NCBI GenBank assembly: GCA_035524375.1
Contig: DATKOZ010000059.1
Coordinates: forward strand, 28,822 to 92,821
Direction of reading: 5' to 3'
DNA: 64,000 bases
DNA from: Candidatus Binataceae bacterium
GTDB taxonomy: Bacteria; Desulfobacterota; Binatia; Binatales; Binataceae
Part shown: in pieces, positions 14,429-48,553 of the stretch
How the letters are laid out: each line of letters begins with the position of its first letter
How positions within the stretch are numbered: position 1 is the first letter of the stretch
Notes under the pieces: model-generated
Seen by the model: the letters and a program-made list of their open reading frames with translations, nothing else
What the model was told of the DNA's origin: nothing
Database searches by the model: none
Translations under genes and position numbers: made by a program

Positions 14429-16405
14429 ATGACAACGCCCCGGAGAGAATATATCTCCATTCCCGGCGGTAATGAGCGCGGCGTGCTGGCCGCGATTCTA
14501 ATCCTAACAGCGCTCGTGTATGCGCGCTCGCTCGGCAGCGAGTTCATTCTTGAGCATCGCGCAATGATCGTTCTGAACCCGCACCTCGGCGATTGGGAAT
14601 TTGTTCGAAAATCCCTGGTCAATGACGAATGGTGGTTCATCGATCCGAGTCATGTACCGGTTTCCGCCTATTACCGTCCATTTATGAACATCTGGATGGC
14701 GCTAAACTACCGGCTGTTCGGCGAAAATCCGGTCGGCTGGCGAGCCGCAATGATTGCGGTCCATATGCTTACCGCGTGGCTGGTCTTTCGGGTTGGCATA
14801 CGGTTAACCAATGACACCGCCGCCGCCTTGATCGCGACTGGACTGTTTGCGCTCTCGCCGCTCAATGCCGAAGCGGTGGTGGGCTCCTTTGCTACACCTC
14901 TCTGCGCGGCATTCGAGCTCGGGGCGTTCGATTTCAATCTTCGCCTCGGCGATACGCATCGGTTGCGAACTCAATTGGCGGCGCTCGGACTTTTCGCATG
15001 CGCCCTAATGAGCTACGAGGCCGCGATCACGCTTCCTGTGCTTATCGCGGTCCACGATTTTCTTTTTCAGAATTTAACGGCCAAAGATCATGCAACGCTC
15101 GCGGATCGAGCCCGAAAGGTGCTGGACGCGACAATGCCTTACGCAATTGTGGCCGGAATCTATCTCGGTCTCCGGTTCTGGATCCTTGGCGCGATCGGCA
15201 GGTCAAATGATTTGCAAAGCCATATGTCCGCAGCGCAGGCCGCCCTGTCGATACCAAATGCCTTGTGGACATATGTGATCCTGCTGGCAACGCCATGGCA
15301 GGCCGGCCCGGCGCATCAGGTGGAGTACGCGGCCGCCGTTACGGACCCGTCGTTCTGGATACCAGCAACAGGGCTGGCGGCACTCAGCTGTGGAGTTTTC
15401 GTGCTGTTATGCCGCCACCGGCATCGGCGCTTATACGCGATGTGCATTGCGTGGTTTATGATCTCGCTCGCACCGATGCTCAATTTAAATGGAGTCGCTA
15501 CCAGCGATCCGATTCACGACCGCTACCTCTATTTCGCATCGATTGGTCTATTCATGGCGGCGGGCGACCTGATCGTGGCATCCTTCCGCGACATCCAAAT
15601 TAAGACGGAAGCGCTTTTAGGCGGTGCGGCAATCGCGGTGCTCGGATTGTCGGCATTGCTCTTCTCCGTGCAAGGCTATTGGCACGACGATGTAGCGGTA
15701 TATTCGCGGATCACTGAGGTATTCCCAAATGCGATGATTTGGCATCGGCGTATGGGTATCGCGCTGGAGGAACGCGGCGAACTTAAAGATGCGCAGCGGC
15801 AGTTCGAATTGGCCATTCGATTCGCGCCGAATGCAGTGGATCCGCTTCACGATTTGGCAATAGTGGATGAGCGGCTTGGCGACAGACGGGGTGCCGCGCG
15901 TGCGATGGCTACCTGGGTGCAGCGCCTCGGTCATCCTTCGCCGGTCGATTATGCAAGCCTGGCCGAGGCCGCGGACGCGGCAGGTGATGCTTCCGCTGCA
16001 GAAAATGCACTCGAACAGGCAGAAGCAATGCCCAAAGGAGCGCAAGCCGCCGCGCTGGCTCGCGCGCGGATTCGATTCCTCCACGGCGATCGCAAAGGCG
16101 CCGAGGACGCGCTGCGCTCGGCACTTCGTAAGGACCCTTACGACGCACCGGCGCTGGCAGCGCTTGGGACCGTGCTTTCCGCCGACGGGCGCGTTGCGGA
16201 GGCGCTTGCAGCCTACCAGCGCGCAGCGGCGCTGGCCCCGCCGGGCACTCTGCAGCTTCATTACAAGATCGCGGTCGCGCTTCATCAATTGGGACGAGAC
16301 CGGGAAGCGCGTGACGAGTGCGCGATGGAAATTGCAGCCGAGCCGGCTAATGCAAATGCGCGCGGGCTGATGGACGCAATCGAGCGTGGACTTGCCGCGA
16401 ACTAA
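14429..16405 (+). CDS. Paralog P1: multi-pass GT-C-like (TMTC/DUF1736/PMT_2-like) membrane domain plus C-terminal TPR domain, DD motif replaced by EH
   Basis: 658 aa. Family motifs present: 'NDEWWFIDPSHVPVSAYYRP', 'NYRLFGENPVGW', 'DRYLYFAS', and the TPR tail '...HYKIAVALHQLGRDREARDECAMEIAA'. The first-loop motif reads SEFILEH (E42-H43 at nt 14552-14557) where most paralogs have F-x-x-D-D. Confidence 0.8.
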   Translation: MTTPRREYISIPGGNERGVLAAILILTALVYARSLGSEFILEHRAMIVLNPHLGDWEFVRKSLVNDEWWFIDPSHVPVSAYYRPFMNIWMALNYRLFGENPVGWRAAMIAVHMLTAWLVFRVGIRLTNDTAAALIATGLFALSPLNAEAVVGSFATPLCAAFELGAFDFNLRLGDTHRLRTQLAALGLFACALMSYEAAITLPVLIAVHDFLFQNLTAKDHATLADRARKVLDATMPYAIVAGIYLGLRFWILGAIGRSNDLQSHMSAAQAALSIPNALWTYVILLATPWQAGPAHQVEYAAAVTDPSFWIPATGLAALSCGVFVLLCRHRHRRLYAMCIAWFMISLAPMLNLNGVATSDPIHDRYLYFASIGLFMAAGDLIVASFRDIQIKTEALLGGAAIAVLGLSALLFSVQGYWHDDVAVYSRITEVFPNAMIWHRRMGIALEERGELKDAQRQFELAIRFAPNAVDPLHDLAIVDERLGDRRGAARAMATWVQRLGHPSPVDYASLAEAADAAGDASAAENALEQAEAMPKGAQAAALARARIRFLHGDRKGAEDALRSALRKDPYDAPALAALGTVLSADGRVAEALAAYQRAAALAPPGTLQLHYKIAVALHQLGRDREARDECAMEIAAEPANANARGLMDAIERGLAAN

Positions 16406-16406
16406 C

Positions 16407-18443
16407 ATGTCCGGAGCCGAACGCATTTCCGCCACCGCATCAAGCCGCCATGACAAGGCCAGCGCCGCACTGTGGCATATTGGCGGTGATTCTGTACCTC
16501 AAGCGATTCTGCCGGTGATCCTAATCGTTGGCGCGCTTGCCTGCGGGCGCAGCTTGGCTAACCGGTTTGCGCTCGATGATTACGCGCAAATCGTCAACAA
16601 CCGGCTGATTGGGCAATGGCCGTTCATCTGGCGATCGATGGTCAATGACGAGCGATGGTTTGCCGATCCGCTTCATCTTCCTCAGACCCCCTACTACCGA
16701 CCATTTCAAAACGTTTGGTTCGCGCTGAATTATCATCTGTTCGGGCTCAATCCGATCGGATGGCACACCGCGATGATTGCGCTTCACCTGATCGTGGTGT
16801 GGCTCGTCTATCGGGTTGCAACGCGGTTAAGCGGGGACCGCTGGGCAGGGCCGCTGGCGGCAGGGCTGTTCGCGCTGATGCCGATTCATGCCGAGGCGGT
16901 AGCTTGGGTCGCGTCGGCCGCAACGCTCCTGGGCGCCGCGTTCGAAATGGCCGCATTCGAGCGATATTTGTTGGCGGCACAATCCGCTGCAGCCAAGACC
17001 CGCCAAACTTTTCTGTCGCTGATATTTTTCGGCGCCGCGCTGCTGAGCTATGACAGCGCAGTGGCATTTCCCGCTCTGGTTGCCGCGCATGCTATGATCT
17101 TCCGACAGGGCAGCAGCGACGCGCCCATGCAGCGCGCCGCCGGCAATCGAGTTTTCAGCGTTATCGCAATTATATGGCCATACCTGGCCGAATTTGCAGC
17201 ATACCTCGGACTGCGATACTGGGTTCTTGGCTTCGTGAGCCGCCCGAATGCCTTCAATAGCCTGACACCGCTGACTGTTATCCTCACGATTCCCAGCGCG
17301 GTCATGCAGTACCTCGCGCTCCTGGCAATACCGTGGCAGGCCGGCCCCGCCCACACCTTGAATATTGCAACACGGGCTTCATCGCCTGATTTTTACGTAC
17401 CGGCGATCGAACTTATAGTGCTGCTCGCGTCGGCGGCGATACTGCTACAGGAGCACCCTCACCGCCGTCTGTATCTATTCTGCGGAGCGTGGTTTTTCAT
17501 CACTCTGGGCCCGATCCTCAGGCTTGATCTGCTTTTCATTAAATTCATGATCCAGGATCGCTATCTTTACCTGCCCTCCTTTGGGGTGTCCCTGATGGCG
17601 GCCGATCTTGCGATCTGGTCCGCCCGGAGAAGCGATACCGCCGCCAAAATGGTCGCATTTGCCTCGGTTGCGATCGTAGTTGCGTATGCCGCTTTGATGT
17701 GGACGTTACAACCGATCTGGCGTGATGACGCTGCTGTATTTACACGTGCAGTTGCGGCAGCTCCGAAATTTGAATTTTGGCATCAAGGGCTCGCCTCGGC
17801 GCTGGCTGCGCAGGGCGATTTCGCCGGTGCCAGCCGGGAATACGAACGCGCCGCGGCACTAACGCCGCAGGGCGGCGACGACATCTTTTACGGACTTGCA
17901 CTGGCCTATGAACATATCGGTAATCGGCGCGGCGCTGAACGCGCGATGGCCGAACGCGTCAAGCGTCTCGATCACCAGACCTCAGACGCATATGCGGATC
18001 TCGCACTCGCCGCCATGGCCGCAGGGGACAAGCCGGAAGCCGAGGAGGCGCTCAAACAGTCCGAAGCAATTCCTGGCGGCTCCGAGAGCGGCGCAATCAC
18101 TCGCGCAAAAATTTTCCTTCTCGATGGAAATGCCACGGACGCCGAGCGGACGATGCGCATGCTGCTCGCCAAAACTCCCAACGACGCTACCGCAATCGAA
18201 ATTCTGGGGACCGCGTTCTCGGCGGAGCATCGCGACACCGAAGCGCTCGCCGCATTCCAGCGTGCGCTCTCGCTTGAGCCGAACAAGCAGGAACTGCATT
18301 ACAAGATAGCCGCCGCACTGCACAACTTGGGTCGCAACCGGGAGGCGCTCGCGGAGTGCACCGTGGCTCTGCGCACTGTGCCCGGGGACCAGACGACTAA
18401 TGCGCTAATCTCCGCCATTGAGCGCGCTCTCCCGGAGCGTTAG
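16407..18443 (+). CDS. Paralog P2: GT-C-like membrane domain plus TPR domain (DD intact)
   Basis: 'NRFALDDYAQIVNN', 'NDERWFADPLHLPQTPYYRP', 'NYHLFGLNPIGWH', and a full TPR tail ending 'HYKIAAALHNLGRNREALAECTVAL'. I prefer ATG 16407, one nt after the P1 stop (TAA-C-ATG), over the GTG at 16386. Confidence 0.8.
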   Translation: MSGAERISATASSRHDKASAALWHIGGDSVPQAILPVILIVGALACGRSLANRFALDDYAQIVNNRLIGQWPFIWRSMVNDERWFADPLHLPQTPYYRPFQNVWFALNYHLFGLNPIGWHTAMIALHLIVVWLVYRVATRLSGDRWAGPLAAGLFALMPIHAEAVAWVASAATLLGAAFEMAAFERYLLAAQSAAAKTRQTFLSLIFFGAALLSYDSAVAFPALVAAHAMIFRQGSSDAPMQRAAGNRVFSVIAIIWPYLAEFAAYLGLRYWVLGFVSRPNAFNSLTPLTVILTIPSAVMQYLALLAIPWQAGPAHTLNIATRASSPDFYVPAIELIVLLASAAILLQEHPHRRLYLFCGAWFFITLGPILRLDLLFIKFMIQDRYLYLPSFGVSLMAADLAIWSARRSDTAAKMVAFASVAIVVAYAALMWTLQPIWRDDAAVFTRAVAAAPKFEFWHQGLASALAAQGDFAGASREYERAAALTPQGGDDIFYGLALAYEHIGNRRGAERAMAERVKRLDHQTSDAYADLALAAMAAGDKPEAEEALKQSEAIPGGSESGAITRAKIFLLDGNATDAERTMRMLLAKTPNDATAIEILGTAFSAEHRDTEALAAFQRALSLEPNKQELHYKIAAALHNLGRNREALAECTVALRTVPGDQTTNALISAIERALPER

Positions 18444-18456
18444 TGTCTAAAGCCTG

Positions 18457-19812
18457 TTGAAAGTCTCCTTTCCCCGTAACCCGGAATCCAATTCACACCA
18501 GCGTGGCGCCGTGATCGCGGCCGCCTCACTGGTGATTTCGCTGTTTGCCGCATTGCGTATTTGCATCGCCGGCGTGCCCGCCTCCAGCTCGCGGCCGTGG
18601 GTGTTGCTGCTTTCGATCGACGGTTCGATCAATCCGGCGGTCGCGTCCTATATCGAGGATTCGATCGATCAGGCCAAAGCCGGTGGCGCAAGCGCCGTCG
18701 TAATCGAACTCGATACCCCGGGCGGACTACTCGCCTCCGCGGAGAAAATCGTCAAGGACCTGCTTGCCGCTCCCGTGCCGGTAATTGTTTATGTCTCTCC
18801 GTCAGGCGCAGGAGCCGCGTCCGCCGGAACTTTCGTTGCGGAAGCCGCGAACATCGCGGCAATGGCGCCCGGGACCACGATCGGCGCCGCGCATCCGGTT
18901 GAAGAAGGCGGCGGCGACATCAGCGGCACGATGGGCCAAAAAGTCGAGAACTTCACAGCGTCATTCGCGCGGACGATCGCCCAGCAACGCGGTCGGAACC
19001 AGGATTGGATCGAACAGGCGGTGCGCCACAGCGTCGCCATCGGCGATCGGGAAGCGCTCGACAAGCACGTGATCGATATCGTGGCGCCGGATCTGCATAC
19101 CCTGCTGGCGCAGGCTTCCGGCCGAAAGGTCGAAGCCGGCGGCCGTTCGATTACGCTTGCGCTGGATGGCGCCGAGGTGCAACCCGCCCGGATGACCACC
19201 GGCCAGCAATTACTCAACGTATTGTCCGACCCGAACATCGTGTACCTGCTGATGATGGCAGGACTGATCGGCCTATATTTTGAATTTGCACACCCGGGCG
19301 TAATGTTTCCCGGCGTCGCCGGCGCGATCTGTCTCTTGCTTGCGCTGGCATCGTTCGAGGTGCTGCCGATCGATCTGACCGGGCTGCTGCTGATTTTTTT
19401 GGGCGTCGGGATGCTGGTGGCAGAGGCATTTGTCACCAGCTACGGCGTTCTTGGACTCGGCGGCGTGACGGCATTTGTTATTGGCTCGCTGCTTCTGATC
19501 GATACTTCAAAGACCGACCTCGCGATAAATCGGCACATCATCTATGGCGCGGCCGGCGGACTATCCGCGATTGTCCTTGGTGTCGGTTTCATCGTCGCAC
19601 GCGATCGAGGGAAACGCGCAAAGACCGGCCCCGAGGGCTTGGTCGGGGAAATTGGAGAGATTCGGGAGGCGATTGCATCGGGCAAGCCCGGAAAAATTTT
19701 TGTGCACGGTGAGATCTGGCGCGCAACTAGCACCGACGCGCTTGCGCCCGGCGCGCATGCCCGGGTGGTCGCCGTCGCCGGTTTGGAATTACAGGTGCAG
19801 GCGGTAAGCTAA
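18457..19812 (+). CDS. NfeD-family membrane-bound ClpP-class serine protease
   Basis: '[42 protein letters not shown]' is the ClpP-like domain. Several TM helices follow, then a C-terminal NfeD OB-like '[14 protein letters not shown]'. The start is uncertain (TTG 18457 or GTG 18511). Confidence 0.85.
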
Positions 19813-19834
19813 TCCGGAACCAAGGAGAACTGCG

Positions 19835-20605
19835 ATGGCGGGAGGATTCGGCTTCATCATAGTCATCGGCATCATCTTCGTGATGAGCGGGCTCAAGGTA
19901 CTCAACGAGTACGAGCGCGGCGTAGTCTTTCGCCTCGGGCGGCTCACCCCGTACCGGGGACCGGGCGTGATCTTCGTAATCCCGATGCTGGAGCGAATCG
20001 TGCGGGTCGATCTGCGGACCGTTACCCTCGATATTCCGCCGCAGGACGTAATCACCAAGGACAACGTGACCGTGAAGGTCAGCGCAGTGCTGTATTTCCG
20101 CGTCGTCGATCCGTCGCGCGCCGTAACCGAAGTGGCAAACTACCTCTTCGCCACGATGCAGATTGCGCAGACGACGCTGCGTTCGGTCGGTGGCCAGACC
20201 GAGCTCGATGAACTGCTAAGCCAGCGCGACAAGCTCAACGCGCGCATTCAGGAGATCGTCGACGCCCAAACCGAGCCGTGGGGCATCAAGGTTACGTTGG
20301 TCGAGATCAAAAACATCGATTTGCCGCAGGACATGCAGCGCGCAATCGCCGCCCAAGCCGAAGCCGAGCGCGAACGGCGCGCCAAGGTCATCGCGGCCGA
20401 AGGCGAATTCCAGGCGGCGCAGCGGCTGGCCGAGGCAGCGGAAATCATGGGCAAAAGCCCAATCACGCTCCAGCTTCGGTATCTGCAAACGCTGGCCGAG
20501 ATCGCGACCGAGCATAATTCGACCACGGTGTTTCCGCTCCCGATCGATTTGATAGAACCATTCCGCGCACTGATTAAGAGTGGTGACCCTGACAAGTCAA
20601 AGTAA
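19835..20605 (+). CDS. SPFH/band-7 (stomatin-like, slipin) protein
   Basis: '[56 protein letters not shown]' plus a coiled-coil '[23 protein letters not shown]'. AAGGAG RBS. This is the classic NfeD partner. Confidence 0.9.
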
Positions 20606-20620
20606 GAAGGAAGACTGAGG

Positions 20621-21226
20621 ATGGGCAGGTTGATTTTGATTCGCCACGCAGAGAGCGAAGGCAATGCGATTCGCGTTTTCACGACGACACCCGAAAGCCT
20701 TGACCTGACCAACCTTGGCCGCCGCCAAGCCGCGCTTGCTGCTGCATCTGTAAAGGAAATGTTCCAGCCGGCGAAGGTCGTCACGAGCACGTTCAAGCGA
20801 GCCCGGGAGACGGGCAGGATCATCGCCGAGGCGATTGGGGTTCCAACTGAAATCGAAGCGGACCTCCGCGAGCGCGATGTTGGCGAACTTGCGGGGCAAT
20901 CCTACGATTCGGTTCTGAACGATCCCGGTTATGAACCGAAGCTATCGTGGCTGTGGCGTCCGAAGGGAGGCGAAAGCCTGGTCGAGGTGATGGGCAGGGC
21001 CGGGCCGGTGCTCGATCGGATCGCAGCGCGTCATCGCGATGAAGAAATCGTCATCGTCAGCCATGGCGGCGTGATGCGTTCGCTGTGGGCGCACGTCACT
21101 GGCAGTTGGGAAGGTGCGCACATCCCGCCCAATTGCGGAATCGTTTTGGTCGAGCATTCGTCCGGCCGCTATCATCCGCCACGTGTGGTCAGCGGCGAAC
21201 CGACCGAAAAGGAAGCCGGCGGCTAA
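20621..21226 (+). CDS. Histidine phosphatase family protein (phosphoglycerate-mutase-like)
   Basis: The 'LILIRHAESEGN' RHG motif and a downstream 'IVSHGGVMR' His motif are both present. Confidence 0.85.
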   Translation: MGRLILIRHAESEGNAIRVFTTTPESLDLTNLGRRQAALAAASVKEMFQPAKVVTSTFKRARETGRIIAEAIGVPTEIEADLRERDVGELAGQSYDSVLNDPGYEPKLSWLWRPKGGESLVEVMGRAGPVLDRIAARHRDEEIVIVSHGGVMRSLWAHVTGSWEGAHIPPNCGIVLVEHSSGRYHPPRVVSGEPTEKEAGG

Positions 21227-22185
21227 TTGCCGGCGATCGGCTTGGTGAGTGCTCGTAGAGTCGCCGGCATCCGATTAGCTGAATCGTCAGCAAGCGGCTG
21301 GGAATAGGAAATCAACCCAGCCTTCGCAGCAATTGCCTGGCCTTGTGCGCCAAGTATCAGCTTTACGAAATCCATCGCGCCGCTTGGATTCGGCGCATCA
21401 TTCGGAATAGTGACACCGTACGCTATCGGCGCGCCCGCGATCGTCGCTCCCCCCGCCTTGACTGTGACCACGGCGTAATCCTTCCGCATCGCGACATCGC
21501 TCAAATTGATTTGCGGCGGCAGGGACAGGAACTTAAGCGGCCCCAGCCGCGCATCGGAGGCATAGCCGAAGTAGTAATCGAGGTCGCCGCTTTCAAGCAG
21601 CGAAATCAGATCGATATTATGCGGACGAATATTCGACAATGGACAACCCGCCGCCAAACGCTTGGCCAGCCCGGGCTTCCGATAAAAGTTCTCGGCCAGC
21701 CGCCACAGGATCAGCGTCCAATATCCCGCCGGATCTCGCGCCGGGTTCGAATGGCCGTAGCGCACGCCGGGGCGGTCCAGAATATCGAACCAATTGTCGG
21801 CACTGATAGCGGCGGCATCCTTCGACTTCTCGGTAAAAAGAATCCCCATCGAGTTTCCGGCAAACACGACCGCCCATCCGCCCAAGCCGGGCCGCGACGC
21901 CGTCAGCAAGCGCCAATCGGCGGTAATCAGGACATCGCATGGACGATGCAGGTCGGTGATTTTACGAATCGCATCCAAACTCCCCGAACCTTCATGCTGC
22001 ACTTCGGATCCCGGATGCGCCGCCTGATATGCCGCCGCCAGATCGCCCGCATAGGCGCGCAGGCTGTCGGCGTGAAAAACGCGGACTACGTTCGAATCGG
22101 CAGCGTGCGCATGCATCGGGCACACGATCGCGGCGATTCCAATCAATAGGACAGCCATGAATCGGCGATGCGATCTCATTTTCAA
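21223..22185 (-). CDS. Periplasmic solute-binding protein, tungstate/molybdate (WtpA/TupA)-like
   Basis: Signal peptide (...IVCPMHAHAADS). 'VFHADSL...EGSGSLDAIRKI', 'ITADW' and 'HSNPARDPAGYWT' resemble oxyanion-binding type-II PBPs. No ABC permease or ATPase gene is adjacent. Confidence 0.6.
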   Translation of the reverse strand: MKMRSHRRFMAVLLIGIAAIVCPMHAHAADSNVVRVFHADSLRAYAGDLAAAYQAAHPGSEVQHEGSGSLDAIRKITDLHRPCDVLITADWRLLTASRPGLGGWAVVFAGNSMGILFTEKSKDAAAISADNWFDILDRPGVRYGHSNPARDPAGYWTLILWRLAENFYRKPGLAKRLAAGCPLSNIRPHNIDLISLLESGDLDYYFGYASDARLGPLKFLSLPPQINLSDVAMRKDYAVVTVKAGGATIAGAPIAYGVTIPNDAPNPSGAMDFVKLILGAQGQAIAAKAGLISYSQPLADDSANRMPATLRALTKPIAGN

Positions 22186-22189
22186 ATGC

Positions 22190-23080
22190 CTAAAACGGAA
22201 GCCGAGCGGAGACGACCCATCGGCTGTTGAAGTTCCGGTAATGCGTTACTGCGACTTCGTCGCCCGCGCCAATCGTCACGCCAAGGCGATTATTTAAAGG
22301 AATGCGTCCGATGATCAAACCGGGAGTCAGGTACAACTGATTGTGGCCCGTTTTTTCGCCATACGAAAACCACGTGTAGTTCGTTTCAAATTCGGGCCAA
22401 AAATATTTGAACAGGCGATACTGAAAGGCGGTATTCCACGCCACCGGCATCCCCAAGCGATCCAATCCGCCGCTTGGAAATGTTACGCCAACGGTGCTCT
22501 GGACGTCGAAGTCCCCGAACCCCTTGCCTGCTGCCAATGTGGGAGTGAAAGTCGCGTGGCCCGCGCCGTTGACATTGGAGCCGGTCGGCACGGTGAATCC
22601 CATGAACGCGGTCACGATGTAATTGCCTTGCTCTTCGTTCGCGGATAGCAGGCGCAGCTTCAGCAGGTACGATAGATCGCCCCAGCCGTCCGTGTTGCGC
22701 GGCGAGCTGCGTTTCAGGTACGGCGGCATCGAGATGATCAGTTCCGTATGCTCCTCCGGGATCAGCTCCAAGCCCTTGCCGCCGTCAAAATTATCGACCG
22801 CGACGCCATTCTTCGATTGAGTGTCCCAGTATTGGTCGTAGCGAACTTCCTGCTCCAGCCGCGGCGTCACCGTGACCAGTGGCGTGATCCAATGCGGCTG
22901 GCTCGCCTTGGCGGCATCGGAGCGAACGAACCAGTTGGAGAAATAATCCTCGATTACCCCCAGAACTCCATAGCCGAACGTGGATGACGGCGGCTGGTCA
23001 TCCGCGAACGCCGGCACCGTGGCCAGAGACAAAGCAGCGCAGATTACCGAAGCCACAAAAGCAATACGGGCAGTTTTCAT
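22190..23080 (-). CDS. Outer-membrane beta-barrel channel (MetA-pathway/'transporter'-type barrel?)
   Basis: Signal peptide MKTARIAFVASVICAALSLATVPAFA, alternating amphipathic strands and a C-terminal 'SARLPF'. It lies 4 nt upstream of the binding-protein gene. Confidence 0.6.
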   Translation of the reverse strand: MKTARIAFVASVICAALSLATVPAFADDQPPSSTFGYGVLGVIEDYFSNWFVRSDAAKASQPHWITPLVTVTPRLEQEVRYDQYWDTQSKNGVAVDNFDGGKGLELIPEEHTELIISMPPYLKRSSPRNTDGWGDLSYLLKLRLLSANEEQGNYIVTAFMGFTVPTGSNVNGAGHATFTPTLAAGKGFGDFDVQSTVGVTFPSGGLDRLGMPVAWNTAFQYRLFKYFWPEFETNYTWFSYGEKTGHNQLYLTPGLIIGRIPLNNRLGVTIGAGDEVAVTHYRNFNSRWVVSARLPF

Positions 23081-23111
23081 AGCCGATGTTTGGTGACATT
23101 ATAAAGGCGAA

Positions 23112-24245: not shown

Positions 24246-24254
24246 ATTGAACGC

Positions 24255-39456: not shown

Positions 39457-39500
39457 GCAAAACTTATCGTGATTCTTTGCCGGATTTCGCAAAACTTATC
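39457..39500. promoter_or_regulatory. 12-bp direct repeat pair in the divergent GH57 / Sel1 intergenic region
   Basis: gcaaaacttatc occurs at 39457-39468 and again at 39489-39500, 32 bp start to start (about 3 helical turns). It lies between the GH57 start (39400, minus) and the Sel1 start (39586, plus). Confidence 0.35.
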
Positions 39501-39585
39501 AAGCGGCGGATGCCGCATTACCCGGCGTCTGTTCACAGCTTGATGCACTTTGACGGCCCGGCGCACATGGCTATGCTGTCCAGCA

Positions 39586-40275: not shown

Positions 40276-40426
40276 TCTGCCCTGACATACCACCCGCGCT
40301 GCCGGGTAAAGCAGCCCGGATTTCCGGGCGCGCCGATAGCTGATAATTTCATAGACGCCACCGATGCGCATGTTCACGCGGATTTCATATTGATCCGATG
40401 GACTTTTACCTCCGCGCCGGCGGTTG

Positions 40427-42496
40427 ATGACGCGCATACGCTTACAGATGGTATCCGAATTCGCCAAGCCGGCCCCTGCCGAACCGCCCCCGGAGCCACC
40501 CCCCCCTGCGCGGCCGGGCGGACATCCGCCGACAATTCTCGACGACGAACGCTTCGCTATCATCGCAGTAATGGCCGTAACCGCGATCGTCTACGCGCGA
40601 TGCGTCGGCTTCGACTTTGTGCTTGACGATCGGATGTGGGTAAACAGCCGGTTCATAGGCGATTGGTCGTTCGCGTGGCAATCGATCATTCACGATTCAT
40701 GGTGGTTCCACGACCCCGGACACCTCCCGCAGAGCCCGTACTACCGCCCGCTGCAGGGGATTCTTGCCACGGTCATCTTTCACCTGTTCGGCGCCAATCC
40801 GGCGGGATGGCATTCTGTAATGATCGCCCTGCATCTGCTGGTTGCGTGGTTTGCGTATCGCGCAGCGCGCCTGCTTACCGGAAATGGGCGCACCGCGATG
40901 CTTGCGGCTGCGATGTATGCGCTGATGCCGCAGCAGGCCCAATCGGTTATCTGGTCCACGGTCACCGACATGCCCATGAACGCGGCATTCGAATTGGCGG
41001 CATTTGGCCTTTATCTGCAATGCCGCATCGACCAGAGCGAAGACAAACCTTCACTGCGCTATCTTCTCCTCTCGCTTGGATTCTTCGCCGCTGCGTTGCT
41101 CAGCTACGACAGCGCAGTGACCTTCCCGGCGCTAATCGCCGCCCACGCCCTGATTTTCCCGAGCCAGAATGCCAGCGAAAGCGAGGGACTGAAGGTCCGA
41201 GTACGAACGGGGATTTCAGCGATGCTCCCCTATGCTTTCGTACTCGCCGCATACCTTGCGATCAAACTCGTACTGCTCGGATTCATCAGCCAACCGTTTT
41301 TGCACAACGACATGACGGCATGGGAACTGATCCTGACGATTCCAGGCGCGATGTGGGCATACGCGATGCTGCTGATTATGCCGTGGCGGGCGGAACCAGC
41401 GGCGCATGGCCTTGCGATAGCGAGAGGTGTCGCTGATCCGGAGTTTCTGATGCCTGCCGGGGGGCTGGCCCTTCTTTGCGCCGCGCCCTACCTAGTTCTC
41501 CGCAACCACCCACATCGCCGCCTTTACCTGTTTTGCGCTGCATGGACATTGATAGCACTTGCACCTGCACTCAACTTGCGCGGGTTGCGGGCGGATCTCC
41601 TTTTCGCCGATCGATACCTCTACCTGCCCGCATTTGGATTCTGTGTGATGGTGGCCGATCTTGCCGTTACCTTCGCCAATACCGGACGCGTTCAGGCGCA
41701 AATGGTCGCAATAGGGGCAACTGCCGTTGTGCTCTTGTACGCGGCGCTGCTGTTTCACGACGAAGGTTACTGGCGGGAGGATTATGCCCTCTATTCGCAT
41801 AGCGTGGAGAAATTCCCGGAAATCGGCATCTGGCATAGCCGGTTGGGATTGATTCTCTCTGCGCGTGGTGATTTCACCAACGCGCGCCGCGAATTGGAAA
41901 TCGGGACATCGAAGGATCCCGACACCGACGGCAATGCGCTGTATGGTTTGGGACTGGTCGACGAAATGCTCGGCGACCGGAAGGCGGCGCTGGAAGTAAT
42001 GGAACGGGGGTTCCGCCGCTTCGACCATCCGCCGCTTATCGCATACACGGAACTCGCAATCGCCCGTGACGCTGCCGGCGATGCAAAAGGTGCAAATGAA
42101 GCGCTGGCTGATGCCGCCAAACAACCGGGCGGCGCCAATGCGGCCGATCTGGCGCGTGCGAAACTGATGTTCGTGCATGATGACGCGAAGGGCTCGGAAG
42201 CCACCTTGCGCGATCTGCTGCGGCGCGATCCGAATTACGCACCCGGATGGATTTTCCTCGGCACCGTGCTGGCATCAGAGCAAAAGTACGACGACGCGCT
42301 CGGCGCATTTCGTCATGCATCGTCGCTGGTACCGTACGACCCAACTCTTCACTATCAGGCCGCCGTGATTCTCCATAATTTGAAGCGCGATCATGAAGCG
42401 CACGACGAATGCACGGCCGCGCTTGCACAGTCGCCAAACGATCCCAAAGCACGGGCACTGATGGCCGCAATCGAACAGAGTAAGGCAGCTCGTTAG
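40427..42496 (+). CDS. Paralog P7: GT-C-like membrane domain plus full TPR domain
   Basis: 'FDFVLDDRMWVNS', 'HDSWWFHDPGHLPQSPYYRP', 'IFHLFGANPAGWH', and the TPR tail '...HYQAAVILHNLKRDHEAHDECTAALAQSPNDPKARALMAAIE'. The N-terminus is Pro-rich. The start is ATG 40427 (TTG 40424 in the ORF track). Confidence 0.8.
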   Translation: MTRIRLQMVSEFAKPAPAEPPPEPPPPARPGGHPPTILDDERFAIIAVMAVTAIVYARCVGFDFVLDDRMWVNSRFIGDWSFAWQSIIHDSWWFHDPGHLPQSPYYRPLQGILATVIFHLFGANPAGWHSVMIALHLLVAWFAYRAARLLTGNGRTAMLAAAMYALMPQQAQSVIWSTVTDMPMNAAFELAAFGLYLQCRIDQSEDKPSLRYLLLSLGFFAAALLSYDSAVTFPALIAAHALIFPSQNASESEGLKVRVRTGISAMLPYAFVLAAYLAIKLVLLGFISQPFLHNDMTAWELILTIPGAMWAYAMLLIMPWRAEPAAHGLAIARGVADPEFLMPAGGLALLCAAPYLVLRNHPHRRLYLFCAAWTLIALAPALNLRGLRADLLFADRYLYLPAFGFCVMVADLAVTFANTGRVQAQMVAIGATAVVLLYAALLFHDEGYWREDYALYSHSVEKFPEIGIWHSRLGLILSARGDFTNARRELEIGTSKDPDTDGNALYGLGLVDEMLGDRKAALEVMERGFRRFDHPPLIAYTELAIARDAAGDAKGANEALADAAKQPGGANAADLARAKLMFVHDDAKGSEATLRDLLRRDPNYAPGWIFLGTVLASEQKYDDALGAFRHASSLVPYDPTLHYQAAVILHNLKRDHEAHDECTAALAQSPNDPKARALMAAIEQSKAAR

Positions 42497-42497
42497 G

Positions 42498-44552
42498 ATG
42501 GCTGAGACAGCACAAATCGCTGCCAATCCACCGGACAGCAAGCCGGCTTCCGGATTCGCCTTGTGGTTGCTTGGCGGCGGCTCCCCGCCGCGAGCGGGAA
42601 TCGCCGCGGTTCTGCTTGCCACCGCGTTCGTCTACTCACGATGCCTTGGTAACGATTTCGTATTCGACGATCGCGAGGAGATCGTCTTCAATCCGTACAT
42701 CGGGAACTGGTCATTTGTCGCAAAGTCCCTGTTCAGCGATGCTTGGTGGTTCCGCGATCCACTGCATCAAAGCCGCTACTACCGCCCGCTTATGAACGTA
42801 TGGCTGTGGCTCAATTATCACCTGTTTGGATTGAATCCCGCAGGGTGGCATGCCGCGATGATCGCATTACATCTGGTTGCGGTATGGCTGGCATTCCGGG
42901 TCGCTACCTTGCTGAGCGGTGACCGCTGGATCGGCCTCTTCGCGGCAGCTCTGTTCGGATTGATGCCGATTCATGCGCAGGCAGTCGTGTGGCCTGCCGC
43001 AATCGCACCGCTGATGTGCGGGACATTTGAACTCGCGTCGCTTGAATACTTTCTATGCGCGTTTGGCTTGCCCGAATCCGACGGACGCCGCACTCGACTG
43101 TCAGCGATCTCAATTGGGCTATTTGCCGGAGCACTGCTCAGCTACGACAGCTCAATTGCGTTTCCATTCATAATCGCCGCGTACTGCTTCATTCGCCCAC
43201 ACGAGCCAGCCGACGGAGCACACGTACCGCAAGGTCAAGCTGGTACCGTGACAGATCGCATCCGTGATACGGCGAACGCAACCGCTCCATACATTGTCGT
43301 TCTGGTCGGGTATCTCCTCCTGCGGCTCTGGGCGCTAAATTTTATTTTCCGCCCGCACATGCACAACCATATGACGCTCGCGGAAATTGCGCTTACGATT
43401 CCCGGCGCGATCGCGGGCTACGCAATGGCATTTGTGGTGCCATGGATGGCCGGCCCGGCGCAGCGGTTGAATATCGTAACGGGCATCGCGGACCAGGGGT
43501 TCTATTTCCCGGTTCTCGGCCTGTCGATTCTTTGCGGCGCCGCCTTTTTATTGATTCGTAGCAATCGGCGCCGCCTTCTATACCTGTTTTATGCAGCGTT
43601 CATCTTAATTGCGTTGGGCCCAATGCTGAATCTGCGAGCATTCCAGGATCAACTGGCGATCCAGGATCGCTACGCATACTTTGCATCATTCGGATTTTGC
43701 ATGTTCCTTGCCGACTATGCCGTCTCGTTTGCGCGACGGAACGATCGATTGGCACCGGTGGTTTGGATCGGTGCAACTGGGATTACGCTACTCTATGCGG
43801 GAACACTTTTTTGGGTGCAACAATTCTGGCACGACGATCTCGCGCTGTTTCAGCGCTGCGTAGATGTCGTTCCGGATGCGGGAACGTGGCATAGCCGGCT
43901 GGGGCTGGTGCTGGAAGCCCGTGGCGATTATCGCGGTGCGCGAAGCGAATTGGAGACTGCGGACCGCCTCGATAAATTCACCGAAGGTGTCGTACTCCAC
44001 GATTTGAGTCTGGTTGACGAACATTTAAACGATCCGGCCGCAGCGGCACGCGTTATGGCGAAGGCGGTTGAACGTGCGGAAGACCCGCCGCCGGTGGCAT
44101 ACACGGACCTGGCGATCGCGCGGGAAGCTGCCGGCGACTCAGCGGGCGCGGAGGAAGCGCTCAAGCACGCCGCCGCAATGCCCGGTGGGGCAAATGTAGC
44201 AGAGCTGGCTCACGCGCAAATCCGTTTGATGCATGGCGATGCCAAAGGCACCGAGGATGCCGTGCGAGAACTGCTAAAACACGCCCCTGATTATGTCGCC
44301 GCGCTCAATGTCCTTGGTGCTGTACTTTCATCGGAGCACCGCTACGACGAAGCGCTACAGGTGTATCGCCACGGGGCAACGGTCGTGCCGACCGACTCGG
44401 ATTTGCATTATCGAATCGCCCTGATACTCCACAAACTCGGGCGCGACGGCGAGGCGTATCCGGAATGTTCGGCTGCGCTTGCGGGCGCGCCGCAGGATCC
44501 GAAGATGCTGTCGCTGATGGCTGAAATCAAACGTGGCCCCGGTGCGCACTAG
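42498..44552 (+). CDS. Paralog P8: GT-C-like membrane domain plus full TPR domain
   Basis: 'NDFVFDDREEIVFN', 'SDAWWFRDPLHQSRYYRP', 'NYHLFGLNPAGWH' and the tail 'HYRIALILHKLGRDGEAYPECSAAL'. The junction with P7 is TAG-G-ATG. Confidence 0.85.
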   Translation: MAETAQIAANPPDSKPASGFALWLLGGGSPPRAGIAAVLLATAFVYSRCLGNDFVFDDREEIVFNPYIGNWSFVAKSLFSDAWWFRDPLHQSRYYRPLMNVWLWLNYHLFGLNPAGWHAAMIALHLVAVWLAFRVATLLSGDRWIGLFAAALFGLMPIHAQAVVWPAAIAPLMCGTFELASLEYFLCAFGLPESDGRRTRLSAISIGLFAGALLSYDSSIAFPFIIAAYCFIRPHEPADGAHVPQGQAGTVTDRIRDTANATAPYIVVLVGYLLLRLWALNFIFRPHMHNHMTLAEIALTIPGAIAGYAMAFVVPWMAGPAQRLNIVTGIADQGFYFPVLGLSILCGAAFLLIRSNRRRLLYLFYAAFILIALGPMLNLRAFQDQLAIQDRYAYFASFGFCMFLADYAVSFARRNDRLAPVVWIGATGITLLYAGTLFWVQQFWHDDLALFQRCVDVVPDAGTWHSRLGLVLEARGDYRGARSELETADRLDKFTEGVVLHDLSLVDEHLNDPAAAARVMAKAVERAEDPPPVAYTDLAIAREAAGDSAGAEEALKHAAAMPGGANVAELAHAQIRLMHGDAKGTEDAVRELLKHAPDYVAALNVLGAVLSSEHRYDEALQVYRHGATVVPTDSDLHYRIALILHKLGRDGEAYPECSAALAGAPQDPKMLSLMAEIKRGPGAH

Positions 44553-44553
44553 G

Positions 44554-46596
44554 ATGCCGGCGAACGACAATACCGCTGCCAAGACATCGGCGCGCGAGGC
44601 CGGATTCCGTTCGGAAATCTCGTGGTTTAACGGCGAATCGGCACCGCGAGTGTGGCTTGGCGCACTGCTGATCGTCGCTGGACTCATATACAGCCGATGC
44701 CTTTCGCACGAATTTGTTCTCGACGATTACGACTGGGCGAACAATCGCTACATAGGAGATTGGTCTTTCATCTGGAAATCGTTCGTAAGCGACGCGTGGT
44801 GGTATCTCGATCCCGCGCACCCGCCCCAGAGCTCGTACTACCGGCCGATGCTGGATGTGTGGGCGGCGCTCAACTTCCACCTGTTCGGCGTCAATCCGTT
44901 TGAGTGGCATCTCGCGATGGTCGCGATTTCGCTGCTCGTAGTCTGGCAGGCGTTTCGCATCGCAAACCTGCTGACCGGTAATGCGTGGACTGCGCTACTG
45001 TGCGCGGCATTGTTCGCGTTGATGCCGGGCCATGCGGAATCGATCGTATGGCCCTCGGCGATTTGCCAGCCGCTCTACGCGGCATTTGTGCTCGGCTCGT
45101 TTGAATTCCATTTGCGCCTCAGAGATGTTCCGGTTGGCGATCCGCGCCATCTGCGATGGCTGGTTATATCGATGGCGTTGTTCGCGGGAGCGCTGTTGAC
45201 CTACGAACCGGCCGCGCTCTTCCCGCTTCTGATCGTGCTGCACGGCTACTTGTTTCCTAACGAGGCGTCCAAAGGCGCGCCCGCACAGCCCGCGTCCGAA
45301 CTATGGAAAATAATATTCGACGCAGTATTCCCGTACGTAGTGCTGACGATCGCCTACCTGCTGCTTCGATTCTGGGTGCTTGGATTCATCAGCCGGCCCT
45401 ATTTGGTCAAACACGTGACCGGACTGGAAAGCATTCTGACGATGCCATACGCGCTTGCGATTTACTTGATGATCATGGCGATTCCAACGATGGCCGGGCC
45501 GGCGCATCGGCTGGATGCTGTCGAAAGTCTCGCCGCTCCCGGATTCTATCTGCCGCTGCTAGGCCTGATAATTCTGTTTGGCACCGGCTTTTTCCTCCTG
45601 CGAAGCCATCCGCATCGGCGGTTGTATGTGTTTTGCATGGCATGGATTCTGATCGCATTTGCGCCGATGCTGAACCTCCAAGGATTGTTCGCGGAGAGCC
45701 TGATTCAGGATCGCTATTTGTATTTCCCGTCGTTTGGGCTGTGCCTGATGGCGGCCGACCTTGCGGTAGGTTTCGGCGATAACAGTCCGGCCCGGTCACA
45801 AGCGATCTGGACGGCATCCGCCGTCGCGCTCGCAATAAGCGCCCTCCTGCTTTTTTCTGTCGAACGATTCTGGCACGACGACATCGCGCTCTATGAGCAG
45901 TGCATCGTCGCGACACCCGATGTCGGCATTTGGCACTATCGATTGGGCCGCGCGCTCGCCGCACGCGGAAACCTGAAAGAAGCGCGCCAGCAGCTTGAAA
46001 GGACCGTCGCGCTCGAACCGAACGCGGGCGGAAACATACTGTTCGATCTCGGCCTGATAGAAGAGAAACTTGGGGACCGAACTGCTGCGGAACGCGAAAT
46101 GTCCGAAGGATTGAAACGGTTCGCAAATCCGCCGCTGGTCGCATACCGCGATGTCGCCATTGCAGCCGATGCCGCCGGCGACTACAAAGGCGCCGAGGCG
46201 GTGCTTAAGCAGGCCGAGGCACAGGATGGCGGCGTTGAAATGGCCGCCATGACCCGCGCGCAAATCCTGTCGATCCACGGCAATCGCGCCGGTGCGGAGG
46301 CCGCGCTCAGGGAGCTACTGCGGCGTAATCCCGACAATGCGCAAGCGCTCGCCGCGCTTGGGACAACGCTGTCATCCGACGGTCACTTGGACGATGCCCT
46401 CGACGCTTACCGCCACGCATCGCTGCTGGAGCCGCATGATTCGAACCTGCATTATCGAATCGCACTGACTCTTCATAAATTGGGCCGCAATCGCGAGGCT
46501 CATGACGAGTGCGCGCTCGCGCTCTCCAGCATGCCCAGCGACCCGAATGTGCGAGCGCTGATGGCCGAGCTTGAGCATGCCGGCGCGCCCGACTGA
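44554..46596 (+). CDS. Paralog P9: GT-C-like membrane domain plus full TPR domain
   Basis: 'HEFVLDDYDWANN', 'SDAWWYLDPAHPPQSSYYRP', 'NFHLFGVNPFEWH' and the tail 'HYRIALTLHKLGRNREAHDECALAL'. I prefer ATG 44554, which gives the same TAG-G-ATG junction as P7/P8, over the GTG at 44533. Confidence 0.8.
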   Translation: MPANDNTAAKTSAREAGFRSEISWFNGESAPRVWLGALLIVAGLIYSRCLSHEFVLDDYDWANNRYIGDWSFIWKSFVSDAWWYLDPAHPPQSSYYRPMLDVWAALNFHLFGVNPFEWHLAMVAISLLVVWQAFRIANLLTGNAWTALLCAALFALMPGHAESIVWPSAICQPLYAAFVLGSFEFHLRLRDVPVGDPRHLRWLVISMALFAGALLTYEPAALFPLLIVLHGYLFPNEASKGAPAQPASELWKIIFDAVFPYVVLTIAYLLLRFWVLGFISRPYLVKHVTGLESILTMPYALAIYLMIMAIPTMAGPAHRLDAVESLAAPGFYLPLLGLIILFGTGFFLLRSHPHRRLYVFCMAWILIAFAPMLNLQGLFAESLIQDRYLYFPSFGLCLMAADLAVGFGDNSPARSQAIWTASAVALAISALLLFSVERFWHDDIALYEQCIVATPDVGIWHYRLGRALAARGNLKEARQQLERTVALEPNAGGNILFDLGLIEEKLGDRTAAEREMSEGLKRFANPPLVAYRDVAIAADAAGDYKGAEAVLKQAEAQDGGVEMAAMTRAQILSIHGNRAGAEAALRELLRRNPDNAQALAALGTTLSSDGHLDDALDAYRHASLLEPHDSNLHYRIALTLHKLGRNREAHDECALALSSMPSDPNVRALMAELEHAGAPD

Positions 46597-46597
46597 A

Positions 46598-48553
46598 ATG
46601 CCCGAGCGGGGAAAATCCACAGCCCCAGACACTTGGCTGCTTGCGATTCTGATCGCGACCGCGCTGATTTACCTTCGATGTCTGTCCAACGAATTCGTGT
46701 TCGACGACTACTACATGATCCTTGCCAACCGCTACATCGGCGATTGGTCGTTCTTTTGGAAATCGCTGGTCAACGACGCGTACTGGTCGACCGATCCGCT
46801 GCACGTTCCCGTCAGTTCATATTATCGCCCGATCAAGGACGTATGGTTCGCAATCAATATCCATCTCTTCGGACGCCATCCCGCGGGATGGCATGCCGCG
46901 ATGATTGCCCTGCATCTTTTCGTCGTATGGCTCGTTTATCGCGTCGCAGCGGAACTGACTCGGGACCATTTCGCCGCTCTATTCGCCGCCGGGATATTCG
47001 CCCTGATGCCGTCGCACGCCGAGACTGTCGTCTATCCCGCGGCGATCGCTCAGCCGCTATGCGCGGCATTCGAATCGGCGGCTTTTCTTGTTTTTCTCAG
47101 ACAAAATGACGAAGACGTTTCCGGGCGGCATCGCCTTGCATTCTCATTATTGCTGTATGCAGGCGCACTACTCAGTTATGAAGGCGCGATAACGTTTCCG
47201 GCCCTTATCGCTGCTTACGTCTATATCTTTCGTCTCTCATCATCTAACGAAAGAATGAATCACGGCGCGCTCGCCGCAGCGATGCCCTACGCACTCATGG
47301 TCATCCCGTATCTCGTTATTCGATATTGGGTACTTGGATTCATTACCCGGCCAAATCCGCAAAATCCCGTACCGATGACTGGGATTGAGGCGTTTCTTAC
47401 AATCCCCGGCGCAATTGCGGCTTATCTCAAACTGCTCGTAGTCCCTTGGCGGGCGGGGCCGGCTTACCGGCTCGATGTCGTCACCAGCATCACCTCGCCG
47501 GGTTTCTATCTTTCAGTCGCGGTGCTAGCGGTAATTTGCGCCGCTGCAATTTGGCTCTTCAGACGCAATCCGCGGCGCAATCTGTACCTGTTCTGTGTGG
47601 CTTGGTTCTTCATCGCGATTGCGCCTGCTCTCAATTTATCAGGTCTCTTTTCCGAAATATTGATTCAGGATCGCTACCTCTACCTGGCATCGATCGCGTT
47701 CTGCGTGATGGCAGCCGATATCGCGATCGATATCGCACGGCGCGGTGAACGATGGTCGCAAGCAGTCTGGGCTGTCGGCCTATGCGGCGTAGCTGCATTC
47801 GCATCCGCCCTCTTTGTAGTGCAGGGCTATTGGCATGACGATGCAACACTGTTCGCGCAATGCGCGGAGGTTTCGCCAGCCTCGGAGTTTTGGCATTACC
47901 GGCTTGGCGTAACGATGATGGCCCAAGGACAAAACGCGAAGGCGCTTCCGGAGCTCGAAAGCGCGGTACGGCTCGCGCCCAATTATGTGGCCGCGCGGTA
48001 CCAACTCGCACAGGTTTATGACGCGCTCGGTGATCGCGCCGGGTTCGCACGCGCGACCGCCGATTGGGTCAAGTCATTCAAGCATCCGCCGCTTGAGGCA
48101 TATACCGCCCTTGCCACCGCCGATGACGCTGCCGGCGACGCGAAGGGCGCAGACGACGCACTTAAGAATGCCGAAGTGCTGCCGGGCGGGATCGACGCTG
48201 CAGCCCTGACCCGCGCGCAATTGATGCTGCGCCATGGAGACAGCAAGCGCGCGGATGCGGCGCTACAGCCGATGTTGAAGCGCGAGCCGGACGATCCGGC
48301 GGTGCTTGCGACCTACGGGCTGGTCCTTGCAGCCGAGCATCGCTACGACGAAGCGATTGCGACAATGCGCCGGGCGGCGGAGCTATCCCCACCCGCGCCG
48401 ATGACTCATTACCGGATCGCGATACTGCTGCATCAGTTGGGCCGCGATCGCGAGGCGCGCGATGAGTGCGCAATCACGCTTGCCGCCGCGCCGGCGGCGC
48501 GCAGCGCGCAAGAGTTGATGGCCGATATCGAGCGAAGCGAAGGCGTCCGATAA
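46598..48553 (+). CDS. Paralog P10: GT-C-like membrane domain plus full TPR domain
   Basis: 'NEFVFDDYYMILAN', 'NDAYWSTDPLHVPVSSYYRP', 'NIHLFGRHPAGWH' and the tail 'HYRIAILLHQLGRDREARDECAITL'. I prefer ATG 46598 (TGA-A-ATG junction) over the TTG at 46571. Confidence 0.8.
   Translation: MPERGKSTAPDTWLLAILIATALIYLRCLSNEFVFDDYYMILANRYIGDWSFFWKSLVNDAYWSTDPLHVPVSSYYRPIKDVWFAINIHLFGRHPAGWHAAMIALHLFVVWLVYRVAAELTRDHFAALFAAGIFALMPSHAETVVYPAAIAQPLCAAFESAAFLVFLRQNDEDVSGRHRLAFSLLLYAGALLSYEGAITFPALIAAYVYIFRLSSSNERMNHGALAAAMPYALMVIPYLVIRYWVLGFITRPNPQNPVPMTGIEAFLTIPGAIAAYLKLLVVPWRAGPAYRLDVVTSITSPGFYLSVAVLAVICAAAIWLFRRNPRRNLYLFCVAWFFIAIAPALNLSGLFSEILIQDRYLYLASIAFCVMAADIAIDIARRGERWSQAVWAVGLCGVAAFASALFVVQGYWHDDATLFAQCAEVSPASEFWHYRLGVTMMAQGQNAKALPELESAVRLAPNYVAARYQLAQVYDALGDRAGFARATADWVKSFKHPPLEAYTALATADDAAGDAKGADDALKNAEVLPGGIDAAALTRAQLMLRHGDSKRADAALQPMLKREPDDPAVLATYGLVLAAEHRYDEAIATMRRAAELSPPAPMTHYRIAILLHQLGRDREARDECAITLAAAPAARSAQELMADIERSEGVR

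Follow-up and report, generated by a model that had tools for sequence, protein, structure and literature searches.

Ten paralogous TMTC/TfpW-like membrane proteins, putative GT-C glycosyltransferases, encoded within 64 kb of a Candidatus Binataceae genome

The closest described counterparts of the proteins reported here are the metazoan O-mannosyltransferases TMTC1-4 (CAZy family GT105) and TfpW, a pilin D-arabinofuranosyl transferase of 646 aa from Pseudomonas aeruginosa Pa5196/PA7. To my knowledge, TMTC-type function is known in animals alone, which have four paralogs acting on cadherins, and TfpW is the one studied bacterial enzyme that joins a GT-C domain to tetratricopeptide repeats (TPRs). 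Among bacteria, O-mannosylation of proteins by GT-C enzymes has been established chiefly for the actinobacterial Pmt, a member of the PMT group (GT39; yeast Pmt1/2 and Pmt4 are others), whose enzymes use Ser/Thr acceptors and work as dimers. ArnT (GT83), a GT-C enzyme of the bacterial inner membrane with an undecaprenyl-phosphate sugar donor, is according to PMC7801869 the closest solved relative of the TMTCs. Full-length prokaryotic TMTC homologues were noted in 2021 and left uncharacterised (PMC7801869). Here I describe ten genes, P1 to P10, in a stretch of 64,000 nucleotides from a Candidatus Binataceae bacterium (contig DATKOZ010000059.1, positions 28,822 to 92,821; hereafter the window). 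Their family is a divergent, heavily expanded branch of this known enzyme type, and I put at about 60% the probability that the ten genes encode paralogous, periplasm-facing inner-membrane GT-C glycosyltransferases with the architecture of TMTC and TfpW.

A first reading of the bare sequence (the original prediction) had located ten family members and estimated that they fill about 30% of the window. All ten open reading frames (ORFs) were found at those positions (Table 1), their products sum to 6316 aa, that is 18.9 kb or 29.6% of the window, and tblastn with the membrane domains as queries returned exactly ten copies. The ATG starts chosen for P2, P7, P9 and P10 are likelier than the starts at which the ORFs open, because each lies one base past the preceding stop codon; the gene call for P10 in a public collection is 658 aa long. 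The ten products have in common an N-terminal membrane domain of ~420-460 aa that can be aligned across all of them, with pairwise identities of 38-51% in this domain and of 31-51% in the TPR part. The single architecture first proposed for all ten holds for the membrane domain but not for the repeats. A full C-terminal TPR domain (~240 aa, recognised by the Pfam TPR families) follows the 11 membrane helices in P1, P2, P5 and P7-P10, and 14 helices were modelled in the TPR part of P1 (full-length AlphaFold2 model; predicted local distance difference test score, pLDDT, 75.6). P4 is shortened, without the last repeats and the HYRIA...DEC tail. In P3, an in-frame deletion of ~190 aa has joined part of the first repeat to the ALMAAIE tail, the frame being kept. 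P6 stops right after the last membrane helix, ~200 bp short of rimP, which leaves no room for a TPR domain. Short or TPR-less forms recur in other metagenome-assembled genomes (MAGs), for instance as proteins of 436-491 aa, and are likely functional variants rather than products of decay.

To assess the fold of the membrane domain, residues 1-447 of P8 were modelled with AlphaFold2 from an alignment of 113 sequences (pLDDT 91.9; predicted template modelling score 0.91). In a Foldseek comparison with the Protein Data Bank (PDB), the best 21 matches of this model were all GT-C enzymes, with probabilities of 0.99-1.00: AglB (E 1.5e-5), ArnT (5f15, E 1.6e-4), Pmt4 (template modelling score, TM-score, 0.56), STT3, DPY19, PglB, EmbB, AftA and Pmt1/2, the Pmt1-Pmt2, Pmt4 homodimer and EmbA-EmbB structures being included. 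A few transporters and G-protein-coupled receptors came next, with low probability and TM-scores of 0.11-0.16. The O-antigen ligase WaaL was not among the 50 Foldseek matches listed, and none of the ten proteins matched a WaaL/Wzy_C or transporter family in Pfam. An O-antigen ligase or transporter fold had been named beforehand as the outcome that would speak against a glycosyltransferase; neither occurs among the good matches, and both readings were rejected on this fold evidence. At the level of the modelled structure, the GT-C fold anticipated in the original prediction is settled. The full-length P1 model was of no help in the same kind of comparison, its matches being swamped by TPR structures.

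Sequence comparison places the family within the GT-C enzymes less directly. Single-sequence Pfam searches recognise the TPRs and barely detect the membrane domain: P1 has a sub-threshold PMT_2 match and an NCBIfam ArnT match of 21.6 bits against a cutoff of 567, P6 has a weak Mannosyl_trans4 match, and neither PF02366 (PMT) nor MIR was matched by any of the ten proteins. Profile comparison reaches further. A profile of the ten membrane domains aligned by hhalign over 351 columns, with a probability of 99.0% and an E value of 3e-18, to a bacterial protein (P0206) that itself has a TMTC_DUF1736 match of 33.5 bits (threshold 27) followed by TPRs, and a profile including distant relatives retrieved P0206 together with a large set of ~670-aa bacterial proteins with PMT_2 and TPR domains. 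In public annotation, relatives appear as 'tetratricopeptide repeat protein' or 'glycosyltransferase family 39 protein', and JGI uses the name 'protein O-mannosyl-transferase', which agrees with the O-mannosyltransferase affinity suggested at the outset. The idea that the TMTCs are the closest match survives as profile homology over the membrane domain to a DUF1736 and TPR protein; it fails as a direct Pfam match and at the donor-site residues discussed below. The PMTs share with the window proteins the GT-C fold, with Pmt4 giving the best TM-score, marginal PMT_2 matches and an acidic pair in loop 1, but the window proteins are without MIR, have a TM7-TM8 loop of ~50 aa and carry C-terminal TPRs instead. 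ArnT resembles them in fold, membrane and expected donor, and differs in its 13 helices, its lack of TPRs and its lipid acceptor. The bacterial PMT_2 and TPR proteins (e.g. AMJ42_05695, PMC7801869), many of ~670 aa and carrying the same JGI label, belong to the same superfamily; the Binataceae branch is set apart from them by H or Y in place of a loop-3 Lys, by a Pro-Trp pair, by its extreme copy number and by arrays of up to 7 genes.

The likeness to TMTC1-4 extends from the overall plan (a GT-C domain of ~450 aa with 11 helices and extracytoplasmic TPRs) to the arrangement of conserved residues. The TMTC motifs are M1 DD, M2 SHKSYRP, M4 KE(T/Q)xxT, M5 DW and M7 ERxxY (Eisenhaber et al., PMC7801869). 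Compared by their published positions, the blocks of the present family are collinear with them: DD (M1) and ..YRP (M2) ~38-40 residues further on in loop 1, a basic-x-acidic motif in loop 2 (M3), xE in loop 3 (M4), xW at the end of a juxtamembrane helix in loop 4 (M5) and (D/E)RxxY in loop 5 (M7). In P8 these are D57-D58, YYRP at 94-97, P157-H159-(E/Q)161 at the end of the third transmembrane (TM) helix, (Y/H)216-(E/D)217, P315-W316 at the end of helix 294-313, and D390-R-Y-x-Y394. All the blocks had been thought visible in all ten copies; this is true of YYRP, LFG, the Pro of the HAE block and the D..Y of DRYLY, whereas the DD and TPR blocks are not universal. The acidic pair is complete in seven of the ten proteins, being EH in P1 and DQ in P5 and P6. 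Its first Asp is nevertheless present in every window copy except P1, which has Glu, and in 108 of 109 aligned relatives.

Two positions depart from the TMTC pattern throughout the lineage. The Lys of TMTC motif M4 has been modelled as a binder of the donor phosphate (PMC7801869). All 50 acidobacterial and other relatives examined have K-E in loop 3, but Lys occurs in none of 79 Binataceae copies, where H, Y or F takes its place and the next residue is E or D; likewise, the P-W pair is fixed in the Binataceae only, the Asp of the TMTC DW motif being Pro. To judge from the alignments, the Binataceae expansion thus coincides with a remodelled predicted donor site. Such replacements, together with the degenerate DD pairs, could be taken to mean that catalysis was lost and that the proteins serve as membrane-anchored TPR scaffolds or chaperones. 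I regard this as highly improbable: D57, YRP, P-H-x-E, the Glu of xE and DRYxY are kept in ~90% or more of 113 relatives, and three copies have lost TPR sequence yet keep the membrane domain, the opposite of what a scaffold would predict. Since the active-site loops are conserved and it is the TPR part, not the membrane domain, that is repeatedly lost, a purely non-catalytic role is unlikely.

Helix 294-313 of P8 ends at PW as the TMTC helix JM3 ends at DW. When it is taken as juxtamembrane, 11 membrane helices result, the short arginine-rich loops would fall in the cytoplasm, and the DD loop and the TPRs would face the periplasm. A positive-inside count with the helix boundaries of the model discriminated weakly; a crude count of hydropathy and charge fits an 11-TM topology with a cytoplasmic N-terminus. 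TfpW, compared here by its published description, matches this predicted plan: its N-terminus is cytoplasmic, it has 11 predicted TM helices and a DDx motif in loop 1, and its C-terminal TPR domain is periplasmic. Its best structural template is ArnT. In TfpW, loop 1 and the TPRs are experimentally periplasmic and the DDx motif is essential.

On the best-supported reading, the DD pair and the YYRP loop, both in a predicted first periplasmic loop of ~62 residues, would combine with the P-H-A-E, (Y/H)-E, P-W and D-R-Y-x-Y loops into an active site that opens to the periplasm. This site would take a sugar from a polyprenyl-phosphate-linked donor and transfer it to a periplasmic or envelope acceptor, probably Ser/Thr residues of proteins presented by the TPR domain of ~7 repeats. 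The parallel with the TMTCs has limits that follow from the organism: in a bacterial host the donor would be a bacterial polyprenyl-phosphate sugar and not dolichyl-phosphate mannose, and there are no cadherin substrates.

Several observations weigh against this reading of the ten proteins as TMTC/TfpW-like glycosyltransferases. PF08409 (TMTC_DUF1736), by which the TMTCs are defined in Pfam, was matched by none of the ten window proteins, even at E<=10, and PMT_2 reached its threshold in P4 alone (27.2 and 26.3 bits against 26.1), so that the Pfam matches expected at the outset largely did not materialise. A search of PDB sequences with the full-length profile retrieved TPR proteins only, and one with the profile of the ten membrane domains nothing meaningful. 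The DD motif is degenerate in three copies, another three (P3, P4 and P6) have a reduced or absent TPR domain, and the two residues replaced in every Binataceae copy (K by H, Y or F; D by P) are proposed phosphate or metal ligands of the TMTCs. Neither a GT2-type polyprenyl-phosphate sugar synthase nor a flippase is encoded within the window. Finally, enzymatic activity, the lipid-linked donor, the protein acceptors and the topology are inferred, the periplasmic placement of the DD loop and the TPRs being argued from homology and the crude charge count.

Protein acceptors are the most likely ones, since proteins are what TMTC1-4 and TfpW glycosylate, and no other enzymes with this architecture are known to have been studied. 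The copies could instead be active GT-C enzymes with non-protein acceptors, such as lipid A or lipopolysaccharide, exopolysaccharide or other envelope glycans, in the manner of ArnT, GtrC-type, YfhO or Emb/Aft enzymes, the TPR domain then binding the polymer or partner proteins. ArnT, EmbB and AftA are indeed among the structural matches, P1 has its weak ArnT match, TPR modules also occur in the polysaccharide export proteins BcsC and PgaA, and acidobacterial relatives adjoin genes for an ABC-2 transporter and for PTPS_related/YfhO-like proteins. However, the best family link is to TMTC_DUF1736 and TPR proteins, the characterised enzymes of the exact architecture are again those that act on proteins, and the genes flanking the arrays in the window include none for polysaccharide biosynthesis. 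I therefore hold non-protein acceptors to be unlikely.

The loci labelled L028, L030, L031 and L032 (Candidatus Binatus soli-like) have the family member in single copy. A DsbA-like protein with a thioredoxin fold (364 aa, CPYC motif) and two to three paralogous secreted Cys-rich proteins of ~264 aa are encoded nearby. The DsbA-like protein, the Cys-rich neighbours or both could be acceptor candidates, or could be unrelated.

A more specific acceptor comes into view in the Acidobacteriota. Pilin genes, one to three within 5 kb, accompany relatives of ~30% identity in 12 of ~40 acidobacterial loci. In Pyrinomonadaceae, Blastocatellia and some Terriglobia, a single family member lies within a conserved cluster that runs from a PilS-like kinase, a sigma-54 PilR-like regulator and one to three type IV pilin genes, through one or two GT-C-like membrane proteins of the PTPS_related/YfhO type, an ABC-2 permease and a small TPR protein, to the family member, a 614-aa membrane protein with no Pfam match and an ATP-binding cassette (ABC) ATPase. 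This looks like a locus for pilin or surface glycosylation, and since the arrangement recalls tfpW beside pilA, it suggests a protein acceptor, the pilin, for the acidobacterial branch, a conclusion that is not transferable to the window copies. That the latter are themselves TfpW-type enzymes dedicated to the glycosylation of type IV pilins would accord with the shared architecture and with these pilin-linked relatives and their PilS/PilR-like regulators. But tfpW is a single-copy gene directly downstream of pilA, whereas the window holds ten copies, and neither the window nor any Binataceae locus fetched contains a prepilin-type gene. As 10-30 copies also far exceed what pilin modification needs, I judge this very unlikely. 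The cyanobacterial pilin 'Ogt', considered as a further comparison, was discarded as irrelevant, being a GT41 enzyme.

Nine of the genes form three tight operons, P1-P2, P5-P4-P3 and P7-P10, and P6 is a single gene. The internal junctions P1/P2, P5/P4, P7/P8, P8/P9 and P9/P10 all consist of a stop codon, one nucleotide and ATG; P4 and P3 overlap by ATGA, and the TTG start of P5 overlaps the TGA stop of ylxR (TTGA). Judged by these junctions, all the arrays are predicted to be translationally coupled. On the minus strand, P6-rimP-nusA-ylxR-P5-P4-P3-recO are co-directional between 24255 and 34199. The gene that usually follows ylxR is infB, and it is this place in a housekeeping operon that P5-P4-P3 occupy.

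Coupling of all adjacent copies raises the question of whether their products work together. The proteins might form hetero-oligomers in the manner of Pmt1-Pmt2 or EmbA-EmbB, with the DD-degenerate P1, P5 and P6 and the TPR-less P3 and P6 as non-catalytic or accessory subunits; the expansion would then have diversified complexes and not independent enzymes, which is compatible with the preferred reading as GT-C glycosyltransferases. Degenerate copies are indeed paired with intact ones (P1 with P2, P5 with P4 and P3), the orthologue of P1 in another MAG is degenerate too, short and TPR-less forms recur in the family, and dimeric or paired enzymes (Pmt1-Pmt2, the Pmt4 homodimer, EmbA-EmbB) are among the fold matches. 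PMTs act as dimers (PMC7759382). On the other hand, the first Asp or, in P1, a Glu is present in all copies, so that all may be active, and P6 stands alone. I consider hetero-oligomers possible, though on balance doubtful.

The copies are old. Named close relatives belong almost without exception to MAGs of Candidatus Binataceae. Identity at the DNA level between window copies reaches at most 63-74%, over short stretches, and recent duplication or gene conversion is therefore ruled out. Orthologues in the MAG TC-S_metabat2.bin.46 (52-65% identical) are closer than any paralog within the window, which upholds the initial view of old and maintained duplicates. The reciprocal best matches of P7-P10 are the four genes of an array (Table 1) that is syntenic with P7-P10 and flanked by the same GH57 and MaoC genes. 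The orthologue of P1 is also degenerate at the DD pair (D-L), its state being thus conserved rather than decaying. At least 30 distinct members were counted in the loci fetched from this MAG, which is fragmentary; with the syntenic four-gene array, this indicates that the duplication was ancient and lineage-wide. Copy number nonetheless varies between species: a 45-kb contig of the same MAG (loci L006/L009) shares NfeD/SPFH/histidine-phosphatase synteny with window positions 14429-21226 and holds 7 copies where the window has 2. Other Binataceae commonly have 3-5 copies in tandem, and such arrays are present in Terriglobia too. A pattern scan of 185,579 species genomes gave 401 relatives, essentially all from Binataceae and Acidobacteriota, and an exhaustive hidden Markov model search returned 2,819 clusters (50% identity) at E<=1e-30 and 39,492 at E<=1e-10.

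The original prediction further had the TPR domains select different acceptors. The TPR and membrane domains are, however, equally diverged, with identities of 44.7% and 45.1%, respectively, between paralogs and of 52-68% and 51-67% between orthologues. Diverging at an equal pace, the TPRs give no special signal of being the diversifying part, and this proposal is left without specific support.

Given the homologues noted in 2021, TfpW and the automated O-mannosyltransferase labels, the kind of protein encoded here is already known, and the belief that no bacterial function had been described must be given up, TfpW being a characterised pilin arabinosyltransferase of the same architecture. By contrast, I found no description in the literature of the Binataceae expansion, and the main Binatota genome paper contains none of the terms glycosyl, mannosyl or TPR. 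What I could not find described, and what is apparently new, is the occurrence of ten copies in 64 kb and of at least 30 in one MAG (against four TMTCs), their grouping into operonic arrays, the insertion of some of them into the nusA operon and the substitution of the donor-site Lys across the clade. An uncultured, globally distributed soil lineage has thus long kept tens of copies of this enzyme type, operon-coupled and with a changed predicted donor site. A bolder view is that each genome encodes dozens of TMTC-like enzymes, produced by coupled operons and perhaps joined in heteromers with TPR-less or pseudo-catalytic subunits, which would serve distinct acceptor classes as one large periplasmic glycosylation system. 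Its donor or chemistry would be unlike that of bacterial and eukaryotic relatives, since throughout the clade His or Tyr stands in for the donor-site Lys and Pro-Trp has become fixed. This is a speculative extension that I think unlikely to hold in full; were it true, no earlier case would be known in bacteria of an extensive network for TMTC-type O-glycosylation of proteins. Should the copies be active, glycosylation of the envelope proteome or glycans in this lineage would be far heavier and more specific than current models of the Gram-negative envelope assume. In any case, the family offers many natural variants for studying acceptor choice by TPR-bearing GT-C enzymes, and because ~39,000 clusters have no closely related characterised member, one biochemical characterisation would annotate many genes.

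A short sequence may link the arrays at the level of expression. GCTGATARTTT has exactly two matches in the window (~0.06 exact matches expected by chance), one ahead of P1 and one ahead of P7, the genes that open the plus-strand arrays (Table 1). In the copy ahead of P7, the palindrome-like CCGGATTTCCGG comes before it, and a near-identical arrangement, AGCCCGGATTCCGG...ATGCTGATAATTTC, stands ahead of the first gene of the 7-copy array in the related MAG (L009, ~3420-3460). To judge from sequence, the arrays may share this element as a promoter or operator; a palindrome search was weakly above chance, and a promoter scan upstream of P7 was uninformative.

Table 1. Coordinates of the family genes in the window, of associated sequence elements and of the acidobacterial pilin cluster, with reciprocal best matches in MAG TC-S_metabat2.bin.46
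Feature	Position	Strand	Length (aa)	Description	Reciprocal best match (identity)
P1	14429..16405	+	658	Membrane GT-C-like domain ~1-421, 7 TPR-like hairpins; E-H replaces D-D	L009 (52%)
P2	16407..18443	+	678	From ATG 16407 (ORF opens GTG 16386); full architecture, DD intact	
P3	25081..26544	-	487	Membrane domain intact with DD; TPR nearly all deleted in frame	
P4	26541..28373	-	610	Membrane domain and shortened TPR; DPYLY replaces DRYLY	
P5	28375..30405	-	676	Full architecture; D-Q replaces D-D; TTG start	
P6	32760..34199	-	479	Membrane domain only; D-Q for D-D, QW for PW; directly upstream of rimP	
P7	40427..42496	+	689	From ATG 40427; first in four-gene array; full architecture, DD intact	L003_4468-6864 (61%)
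P8	42498..44552	+	684	Full architecture; membrane domain 1-447 modelled	L003_6861-8948 (62%)
P9	44554..46596	+	680	From ATG 44554 (ORF opens GTG 44533); full architecture; PT for PW	L003_12233-14302 (65%)
P10	46598..48553	+	651	From ATG 46598 (ORF opens TTG 46571); full architecture	L003_14223-16241 (54%)
GCTGATAGTTT	14375..14385	+		44 nt upstream of P1 start; possible shared promoter element	
CCGGATTTCCGG-N11-GCTGATAATTT	40316..40349	+		Upstream of P7	
Conserved pilin cluster	~2-14 kb in each locus			Loci L045, L054, L057, L072 and L075 (Pyrinomonadaceae/Blastocatellia)	

The neighbours of the family genes in the window are of ordinary kinds and encode a CoA-transferase, a TonB-dependent receptor, NfeD/SPFH proteins, a solute-binding protein, RecO, NusA, RimP, YlxR, an MgtC-like protein, an acetyl-CoA synthetase, a GH57 protein, a Sel1 protein and MaoC dehydratases. 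Elsewhere in the window, a 1306-aa protein with TPRs and a PIN-TPR-GreABC domain (PF20698) is encoded at 52426-56346 on the minus strand; its neighbours are an ABC-F ATPase (56376-58298) and a small protein with a PKD domain (51623-52045). At 2344-2990, also on the minus strand, a HigB-like toxin is paired with an HTH_3 antitoxin, and there is an ORF for an AbiEi_4-like regulator at 4211-5065.

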